Of a stretch of 64,000 nt of DNA, positions 28,846 through 30,120 are shown one piece after another. Source of the stretch: Octopus sinensis. Taxonomy: Eukaryota. The notes under the pieces were generated by a model. It worked only from the letters and a program-made list of their open reading frames with translations. It ran no database searches and was not told the origin of the DNA. Each line of letters opens with the position of its first letter. Positions within the stretch are counted from its first letter, which is position 1. The position numbers were made by a program, and so were the translations under genes. The stretch covers positions 54,944,464 to 55,008,463 of the forward strand of contig NC_043011.1 in assembly GCF_006345805.1 (NCBI RefSeq), given 5' to 3'.

Positions 28846-30120
28846 TTACTTATGATATAAAATATCTTGTTTAATTTTTGAAGGAAATTCTAGGGGTTTC
28901 CCTGTTTTATTCATACCAAACTTTGAAGAAAATACATTGAACTTCCATTTATTCAACTCTCCAAATTTCAATGGTGATTTCTGAGATTTCTTCATATCAT
29001 AATTAACCTTTGAAGGAAAAACTAATGATTTTCTAGTATTATTCCTTTTAAACTGTGAAGGAAGCTTTTGAACTTTCCATATATTATTCTGCTTCAAGGG
29101 TGCTTTTTGATATTTCTTCATGTTACCCTTTAAAGGAAATATTAATGATTTCCCAGTGTTATTTCTTTTATACTGTGAAGGAACCTTCTTAACTTTCCAC
29201 TGCTCTCCAAATTTCAAGGGTGCTTTTTGATATTTCTTCATGTTACCCTTCAAAGGAAATATTAATGATTTCCTAATGTTATTTCTTTTAAACTGTGAAG
29301 GAAACCTCTTCAGTTTCTTCTGCTCTCCAAATTTCAAGGGTGCATTTCGGTATTTCTTCATGTTATAGTTACCCTTTGAAGGAAACCTTAATGATTTCCC
29401 AGTGTTATTTCTTTTATACTGTGAAGGAACCTTCTTAACTTTCCACTGCTCTCCAAATTTCAAGGCTGCTTTTTGATATTTCTCCATTTTACCCTTTAAA
29501 GGAAATATTAATGATTTCCTAGTGTTATTTTTTTTAAACTGTGAGGGAAACCTCTTAACTTTCCACTGCTCTCCAAATTTCAAGGGTATTTTTTGTGATT
29601 TCTCCATGTTACTCTTTGAAGGAAACATCAATGATTTCCCAGTGTTATTACTTTTATTATTCTGCTCTCCAAATTTTAAGGGAAATTTCAGAGGTTTCGT
29701 CTTGTCTTTTTTATAAAACGATCTCCACGTATCGTTCTTGTTAGTCTTCGAAGTCGGGAATATGATTGTTTTATTTTGTCCAGATTCCGACAGAAAACCC
29801 ATTCTTTTCTCGTCGGCCCATGATCGCTTCAGAGGTTTTGCGAAAGGCGTAACTTTTCCTTCTTCAATCTTACGTTTCAATTCAATATATTTATCTCGTC
29901 TATGTGCTTCTCTATCAAAATATTTCACACGATTCATACTAATTTTGCCTTTAAAGTCCTGACCACTCGACAATTTATACATTCGGTTCACTTTCTCGCG
30001 AATTAAATAACTATTCGCAAAATATCCGTAGGTCATGGCTAAACTAACAAGAACAACAGAGAATATTACAAGAATATAAAAAGCTTTGATGCTCGTAAGA
30101 CTGTAGGATTTTCTAGACAT
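28846..30120 (-). CDS. Uncharacterised Lys-rich secreted or membrane-anchored protein with six ~40-aa tandem repeats
   Basis: 424-codon ORF in AT-rich DNA. ATG is followed by a hydrophobic stretch (FYILVIFSVVLVSLAM). Repeats of 120/126 bp start at 29649, 29529, 29409, 29283, 29163 and 29043, and their length differences preserve the frame. Confidence 0.8.
   Translation of the reverse strand: MSRKSYSLTSIKAFYILVIFSVVLVSLAMTYGYFANSYLIREKVNRMYKLSSGQDFKGKISMNRVKYFDREAHRRDKYIELKRKIEEGKVTPFAKPLKRSWADEKRMGFLSESGQNKTIIFPTSKTNKNDTWRSFYKKDKTKPLKFPLKFGEQNNKSNNTGKSLMFPSKSNMEKSQKIPLKFGEQWKVKRFPSQFKKNNTRKSLIFPLKGKMEKYQKAALKFGEQWKVKKVPSQYKRNNTGKSLRFPSKGNYNMKKYRNAPLKFGEQKKLKRFPSQFKRNNIRKSLIFPLKGNMKKYQKAPLKFGEQWKVKKVPSQYKRNNTGKSLIFPLKGNMKKYQKAPLKQNNIWKVQKLPSQFKRNNTRKSLVFPSKVNYDMKKSQKSPLKFGELNKWKFNVFSSKFGMNKTGKPLEFPSKIKQDILYHK

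Follow-up and report, generated by a model that had tools for sequence, protein, structure and literature searches.

The minus strand of a 64,000-nucleotide stretch of the Octopus sinensis genome (NC_043011.1, positions 54,944,464 to 55,008,463; hereafter the window) carries an uninterrupted open reading frame (ORF) of 424 codons at 28846–30120. This ORF is a real gene, beyond chance, which is already modelled in RefSeq as locus LOC118766362 yet undescribed, and its product (P0001) is a cationic repeat protein or precursor that is likely secreted. As far as our searches reached, the gene appears restricted to the genus Octopus. We favour, while stopping short of calling it probable, the reading that the product is secreted as a glycosylated, disordered polycation after likely trimming of the pro-region, with a function that is predicted. 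A first-pass annotation of the same DNA had rightly offered an uncleaved glycosylated matrix protein as its alternative. N-glycosylation sequons are retained better than Lys-Arg (KR) junctions.

The gene, its transcripts and its relatives

The frame is longer than anything produced by shuffling, which yielded at most 170 open codons in 2000 trials, and the 157 codons 5′ of the repeat array stayed open in none of 20000 shuffles, while the remaining five frames of the region contain 14–49 stops each. The array by itself is weak coding evidence, as 30% of shuffled 120-mers yield some open tandem frame. The start codon lies in the context TTTAAAAATG, and the two ATGs upstream of it (30235 and 30142) open just 1 and 9 codons. 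The predicted protein has 85 Lys and 22 Arg (together 25% of residues) versus 24 Asp/Glu, no Cys and a computed isoelectric point (pI) of 10.6. Its single hydrophobic stretch, approximately residues 13–29 (30034–30084, minus strand; from hydropathy and the structural model), reaches a best 19-residue Kyte-Doolittle mean of 2.42 and likely serves to export the protein. The candidate small-residue signal-peptidase pattern Ser26-Leu27-Ala28, read by eye, would place a cut after Ala28, although the same segment also fits an uncleaved anchor. Frame and composition thus bear out the position, hydrophobic N-terminus and absence of Cys described in the first-pass annotation. Sequence comparison delimits a non-repeat pro-region at residues 29–115 (29776–30036, minus strand) with dibasic sites at RR 74, KR 82, KR 98 and KR 105.

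Twenty sequencing runs from 8 studies and 4 organism labels contain 74–89% of the sequence words of the ORF stretch, while runs X21–X24 contain almost none. None of the 20 is on record as RNA, and we guess that 14 are. Contigs were aligned from four of them (X1, X2, X3 and X14), and because these runs assemble into just 61–91 million letters of contigs for a genome of 2,719 million bases, with depths of 12–311 over the unique parts of the locus, we infer that they are RNA. Taking these four runs as RNA, and with no silent stretch as a control, the gene is probably transcribed. The contigs of all four extend through the stop codon and 1.3–1.4 kb past it with no joint, crossing (from 27400–27511 upward) a probable 3′ untranslated region at 27403–28845 (minus strand) with AATAAA at 28013 and 28026 and ATTAAA at 27524 and 27887 on the same strand. 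Within this region a 35-base piece (28620–28655) recurs in other contigs of X1 and X2 that diverge from the window, and is a short dispersed repeat. On the 5′ side one X14 contig extends from 29558 to 30300 across the start codon, joining a probable 5′ untranslated region (30121–30300, minus strand) to the coding frame. X1–X3 have no cover at 29631–30300, a hole that was not used since filtering can produce such gaps. The contig ends near 27400 and 30320 lie at microsatellites and therefore do not mark transcript ends.

The stop codon of the ORF sits within a donor-like AA/GTAATA, and the frame was therefore tested as a possible first exon of a longer gene. A continuation into a catalytic domain was rejected, as no joint occurs in any of the four runs, the orthologue has the same stop and a weak search of 5444 candidates gave no longer protein. 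Joining to the terminal exon at 42820–43160 (minus strand) is likewise unsupported. This exon lies on the strand of the ORF, 12.7 kb upstream of it, and has a clean acceptor; the genome contains three other sequences weakly related to it. It has no Pfam row and resembles METTL24/FkbM-type methyltransferases.

A word-indexed protein search returned two matches among 1791 candidates, both from Octopus and both without a function or Pfam domain on record. XP_036365651.1 (O. sinensis LOC118766362 isoform X2, 355 residues) is identical to the ORF protein except for a 69-residue gap, whereas XP_014780422.1 (O. bimaculoides LOC106876403 isoform X5, 361 residues) is an orthologue that has the same start and stop and fewer units, and that agrees with the ORF protein in its leader, its pro-region, the type of its units and its final residues. 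None of the three possible placements of the 207-nt gap in isoform X2 gives GT-AG ends, and an X14 contig passes the 5′ edge of the gap without interruption, so that it resembles an artefact of the gene model or an allele of different length and not an intron. The repeat units at 29044–29649 (minus strand) each hold a donor-like GGTAAC or GGTAAA and a strong acceptor-like TTCCTTCACAG formed by the PSQ codons. Joining these sites would change the frame and lead to an immediate stop, and no such joint occurs in the four runs; the sites may be the cause of the several RefSeq isoforms.

Further searches reached no relative outside the genus. A profile of three sequences against 1.84 billion representatives matched XP_036365651.1 alone, there were no relatives among 5444 longer candidates (a weak search) or 638 shorter ones, the PDB gave no match at E 1 and the Atlas nothing usable. 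Pfam returned three rows, the best of which (PF20914, 23 bits against a cut-off of 22.5) covers 14 residues with no stretch passing alone; we judge it to be a probable artefact of the repeats and the others probable noise. Within the O. sinensis genome the whole protein has one match, its N-terminal part otherwise reaches E 0.16 or weaker and the repeat DNA finds only the array itself; the gene is single-copy, with no paralogue found in the genome. The description of the protein as an orphan that belongs to no family therefore survives with respect to any relative beyond Octopus and has to be amended by the RefSeq models in two Octopus species. A literature search found no publication for four accessions, nothing relevant (one unrelated match) for six peptide motifs and no work that combines octopus, dibasic, precursor, cationic and repeats. 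None of the motifs or accessions occurs in the readable supplementary files of PMC9712504 or in the one small file of PMC9815951.

Repeat units, sequons and dibasic junctions

At the DNA level the array occupies 28957–29656 with a 120-nt period, 5.7 copies and 81% matches. Unit alignment divides the protein into six full units at residues 158–403, with lengths of 40, 40, 42, 40, 40 and 44 residues, so that, as had been noted before, the length differences keep the frame. They are preceded by a degenerate first unit (residues 116–157; 29650–29775) that opens with an NKT sequon and followed by a partial last unit (residues 404–424 plus the stop; 28846–28911), all on the minus strand. Unit 1 (residues 158–197; 29530–29649) has KS before it, KK at its end and an internal KR, and unit 2 (198–237; 29410–29529) ends in KR. 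KR stands on both sides of unit 3 (238–279; 29284–29409), which also holds an internal KR and two KK, of unit 4 (280–319; 29164–29283), the sole unit without a sequon (NNI in its place), and of unit 5 (320–359; 29044–29163). Unit 6 (360–403; 28912–29043) is older, diverged and ends in GM. All five junctions listed in the first-pass annotation (PSQFKK, PSQYKR, PSQFKR, PSQYKR and PSQFKR) are present as given, whereas its statement that six repeats are bounded by dibasic sites does not hold, given the KS before residue 158 and the GM that ends unit 360: a dibasic pair flanks both sides of four of the six units, KR flanks both sides of three, and every unit contains one to three internal dibasic pairs. 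The repeat that it quoted is a mixture of units 280 and 320 and is literally absent. The array consists of 23% Lys, 13% Phe, Tyr and Trp combined, 8% Ser, 2% Thr and 6.5% Pro, with a net charge of +6 to +10 and 2–3 Pro per unit.

Conservation is unevenly distributed along the protein. Residues 1–35 are identical to O. bimaculoides at 33 of 35 positions (94%), compared with 145 of 185 in the later aligned parts (Fisher p 0.033); residues 36–115 match at 59 of 80, and identity outside the leader is 74–85%. Both species have a basic pair at each of the pro-region sites 74, 82, 98 and 105, one of them by an RR/KR swap. In a tree of the 10 units of the two species the terminal units pair across species (support 0.998) and the internal ones within species, which makes the internal copies recent and not independent. 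Among the four young units the proportions of nonsynonymous (pN) and synonymous (pS) differences are about equal (0.04–0.15 versus 0.04–0.18), in comparisons with the old unit 360 their ratio is 0.3–0.55, and over all 21 unit pairs uncorrected pN/pS is 0.195/0.333.

The sequon is intact in 9 of the 10 aligned full units of the two species. Of the same 10 units, 6 retain the KR junction and the others have KK, KT and, twice, GM. In a simple neutral simulation either motif survives 10–15% change with a probability of 0.53–0.68, which would place retention of the KR junction within the neutral range and that of the sequon modestly above it. The middle residue of the sequon varies (NNT/NKT, and NDT/NNT at residue 129) while its Asn and Thr are constant. 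The two degenerate end units also begin with a sequon, which in the ORF protein has no KR before it. There are 9 sequons in the ORF protein versus 3.1 expected and 10 versus 4.1 in the orthologue, which carries additional mid-unit copies.

None of the four runs ends like the reference. The contigs of X1 and X2 have one extra base after 28899, which would end the frame near residue 416, and a base missing at 28987 in those of X3 and X14 would end it near residue 383; these predicted ends assume that the remaining sequence is that of the window, and each contig-level allele comes from two studies. As the reference end is common to O. bimaculoides, two separate truncations must have arisen. Behind the 28987 frameshift the old frame has acquired one nonsense and one missense change, the pattern that a real truncation would leave once the tail is free from selection. 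The contigs of the four runs contain no stop or frameshift before residue 378, and both frameshifts lie 3′ of the last KR junction. Frameshifts, which the first-pass annotation had named as a sign that would speak against its proposal, are thus present in the tail in all four runs but spare all the KR-ended units. The two independent events imply that the last 40-odd residues are dispensable. In addition, all four runs share a T>C difference at 28865 (A>G in the transcript, Asp419 to Gly) where the orthologue keeps Asp, making this position a candidate RNA editing site or a simple allele. Editing would not produce two further differences common to the four runs (28231 and 28963), and the haplotype of the reference would explain all three alike.

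Candidate readings of the protein

In the reading we favour, the leader would route the protein into the secretory pathway, the sequons at the start of nearly every unit would be N-glycosylated and a KR-cutting convertase would trim the pro-region at its four dibasic sites. A glycan on the Asn directly after each KR junction would shield most junctions and leave the array whole or partly cut. The array would then be released mainly whole, as a flexible chain with a charge of about +50 and regularly spaced aromatic residues, and this polycation would bind acidic mucus, sulphated polysaccharide or microbial surfaces through its bulk charge. Such a chain would account for the kept composition and sequons, the loose sequence, the variable unit number and the dispensable tail. 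Judged by the charge-hydropathy boundary, array and pro-region are both predicted to be unfolded. An AlphaFold model built with three sequences has a mean predicted local distance difference test score of 38.6 that rises to ~80 only at residues 11–30, with a continuous predicted helix at 8–51, low-confidence helices up to residue 111 and no structure beyond residue 112, the array included.

Several points weigh against this reading. With only three sequences behind it, the AlphaFold model is consistent with disorder and is not independent proof of it. KR occurs 9 times versus 4.4 in shuffled sequences (p 0.019), and 10 versus 4.6 in the orthologue (p 0.007), while RK is not enriched (4 versus 4.4, and 3 versus 4.6 in the orthologue); a purely uncleaved polymer would not need such an excess of KR over RK. 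Both tail frameshifts spare every KR-ended unit. Since the repeat units are not independent, the counts of both sequons and KR overstate their significance, and sequon retention in 9 of 10 units against a neutral 0.55–0.68 gives the reading only modest support. Supplements on skin mucus, ink and the posterior salivary gland (PMC10138644, PMC10142993, PMC7693380 and PMC11525497) contained no peptide or accession of the protein, in a search that had no positive control, although a polycation of mucus could have shown up there. Finally, the proposed shielding supposes, by analogy with other cases, that a glycan on the residue immediately behind a dibasic site would likely hinder the enzyme. Nearby O-glycans are reported to inhibit furin (PMC11099032).

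The excess of KR over RK, together with the four conserved dibasic sites, makes some convertase trimming plausible. In a second reading, which develops the peptide set proposed in the first-pass annotation, the protein is a polyprotein that PC1/PC2-type convertases would cut at KR to release cationic peptides with an antimicrobial, defensive or signalling role. Repeat-type polyproteins of this kind combine a leader with tandem units, have KR between many of them and conserve the leader better than the units, and a leader more conserved than the remainder is also the pattern of venom and skin-peptide precursors. The ORF protein resembles them in its leader, its tandem units with KR between many and its best-conserved leader (33/35 versus 145/185), and differs from them in having no acidic spacers, no amidation Gly, internal pairs, a variable junction and a sequon after the cut. 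Three to five peptides of 33–45 residues and net charge +6 to +10 would result, with short pieces, among them the KR-flanked pentapeptides FPSQF and SWADE/TWADE, as extra products. KR exceeds RK in both species, the non-repeat part of the orthologue has 4 KR versus 1.5 expected (p 0.043), the four pro-region sites are kept, the KR-ended units are untouched by the tail frameshifts and the sex-pheromone precursors of Sepia provide a cephalopod parallel (PMC3484142). The corresponding excess in the non-repeat part of the ORF protein is, however, not significant (p 0.11), no Gly precedes any dibasic pair (an amidation signal in none of six units), there is no RxxR furin site, and internal KR, KK and RK in all six units would fragment the units further. 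Moreover, the junction is altered to KK, KT or GM in 4 of 10 units, a sequon sits on the first residue after the cut and the young units change near-neutrally. The released peptides were also expected to be amphipathic, a property that we do not find: the hydrophobic moment exceeded shuffles in none of 30 tests (10 segments in three windows, as helix or strand; lowest p 0.151), and each unit contains 2–3 Pro. Such a peptide factory is possible and is not the best-supported reading; we regard it as rather unlikely. The two readings are not mutually exclusive, and partial cutting may occur at unglycosylated junctions such as that of the NNI unit. A stronger version of this, in which sequon occupancy after KR would decide between a long matrix chain and peptides of +8 to +10, we consider very unlikely.

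Two further readings were weighed. Should the hydrophobic segment stay in place as an anchor, the product would be a type II membrane protein whose glycosylated basic ectodomain faces the Golgi lumen or the outside of the cell, and which can be shed at the four conserved dibasic sites in its stalk. The 12-residue basic N-terminus before the hydrophobic stretch, the 33/35 identity over residues 1–35, the continuous predicted helix at 8–51 and the cluster of conserved dibasic sites just behind it would all suit such a topology. Yet Ser26-Leu27-Ala28, as read by eye, fits a signal peptidase, no catalytic or binding domain follows the segment, the four runs show no joint to a later exon, no longer form was found and the orthologue terminates at the same residue, which makes a membrane protein improbable. 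Alternatively, the gene could be young, confined to its lineage and only slightly constrained in sequence, and might even be in decay within the O. vulgaris group; its KR and sequon patterns would then be unselected copies of one ancestral unit. The two independent tail frameshifts with a nonsense change behind one of them, the near equality of pN and pS among young units, the lack of relatives beyond Octopus and the 74–85% identity outside the leader agree with this, but start, stop and frame are kept in two species despite independent turnover of the repeats, the leader is 94% identical, pN/pS is 0.3–0.55 for old units, no stop or frameshift precedes residue 378 and the stretch is present in 20 runs of 8 studies. 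We give this reading little credence.

Known systems, neighbouring features and significance

The nearest functional analogues of the ORF protein are SepECP1 and SepECP2 of the Sepia officinalis egg case, which are secreted, cationic (Lys+Arg 14–17%), N-glycosylated, and both structural and antimicrobial (PMC4500399). The ORF protein is likewise cationic (pI 10.6) with 9 predicted sequons, whereas the SepECPs have 50–55 Cys in three Cys-rich domains and no repeats, against no Cys, repeats and 25% Lys+Arg here. Protein searches gave no sequence match between them. The Sepia SP-alpha, alpha′ and beta precursors have leaders of 29–34 residues, dibasic processing and predicted N-glycosylation (PMC3484142), and so share with the ORF protein a long leader, several dibasic sites and predicted sequons. 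Their products, detected in the oviduct gland by mass spectrometry, are non-repetitive, Cys-rich and partly amidated, in contrast to the repetitive, Cys-free ORF protein. The searches gave no sequence match to these precursors, only Octopus proteins of the gene's own locus.

Mucin-type repeats are rich in Pro, Thr and Ser and dominated by Thr and Ser for O-glycans, and the ORF array, with 23% Lys versus 8% Ser and 2% Thr, is not of this type. In octopuses the oviducal peripheral gland secretes the egg cement, a mucoprotein that sets through the action of a sulphonated mucopolysaccharide (PMC8976471); the mucoproteins described there are O-linked. A partner of that kind would suit a glycosylated polycation, a parallel that we offer as a lead only. 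The five supplements of PMC8976471 contain no occurrence of the ORF motifs or accessions.

Elsewhere in the window, the region 5011–8220 on the plus strand holds exons of an LPMO_10 lytic polysaccharide monooxygenase (Pfam E 1.6e-12) and, after them, a frame of 443 codons. This frame has no Pfam row; it encodes a long, basic linker rich in Ser, Thr and Pro, and a pair of Cys/Trp motifs resembling chitin-binding modules. An AT-rich minisatellite at 10076–10970 has 24.9 copies of a 36-bp unit at 98% match. Transposon-like frames occur at 11288–11797, 22323–23473 and 25567–25995 on the minus strand and at 48563–49213 on the plus strand. One looks like the endonuclease of a long interspersed nuclear element (LINE), by a Pfam Exo_endo_phos_2 row below cut-off, and the remaining ones, which have no Pfam rows, resemble Helitron, Tc1-like and Penelope-like elements.

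If the protein acts as a bulk polycation, it would be one more lineage-specific matrix or mucus protein, a useful and unsurprising addition. If instead glycans gate its cleavage, glycosylation alone would let an octopus-only gene change from a structural to a defensive product and back, and control at its KR/N-glycan junctions would offer a compact example from nature in which glycans choose between polymer and peptides. The materials and chemical defences that are peculiar to octopuses may well involve secreted proteins restricted to these animals.
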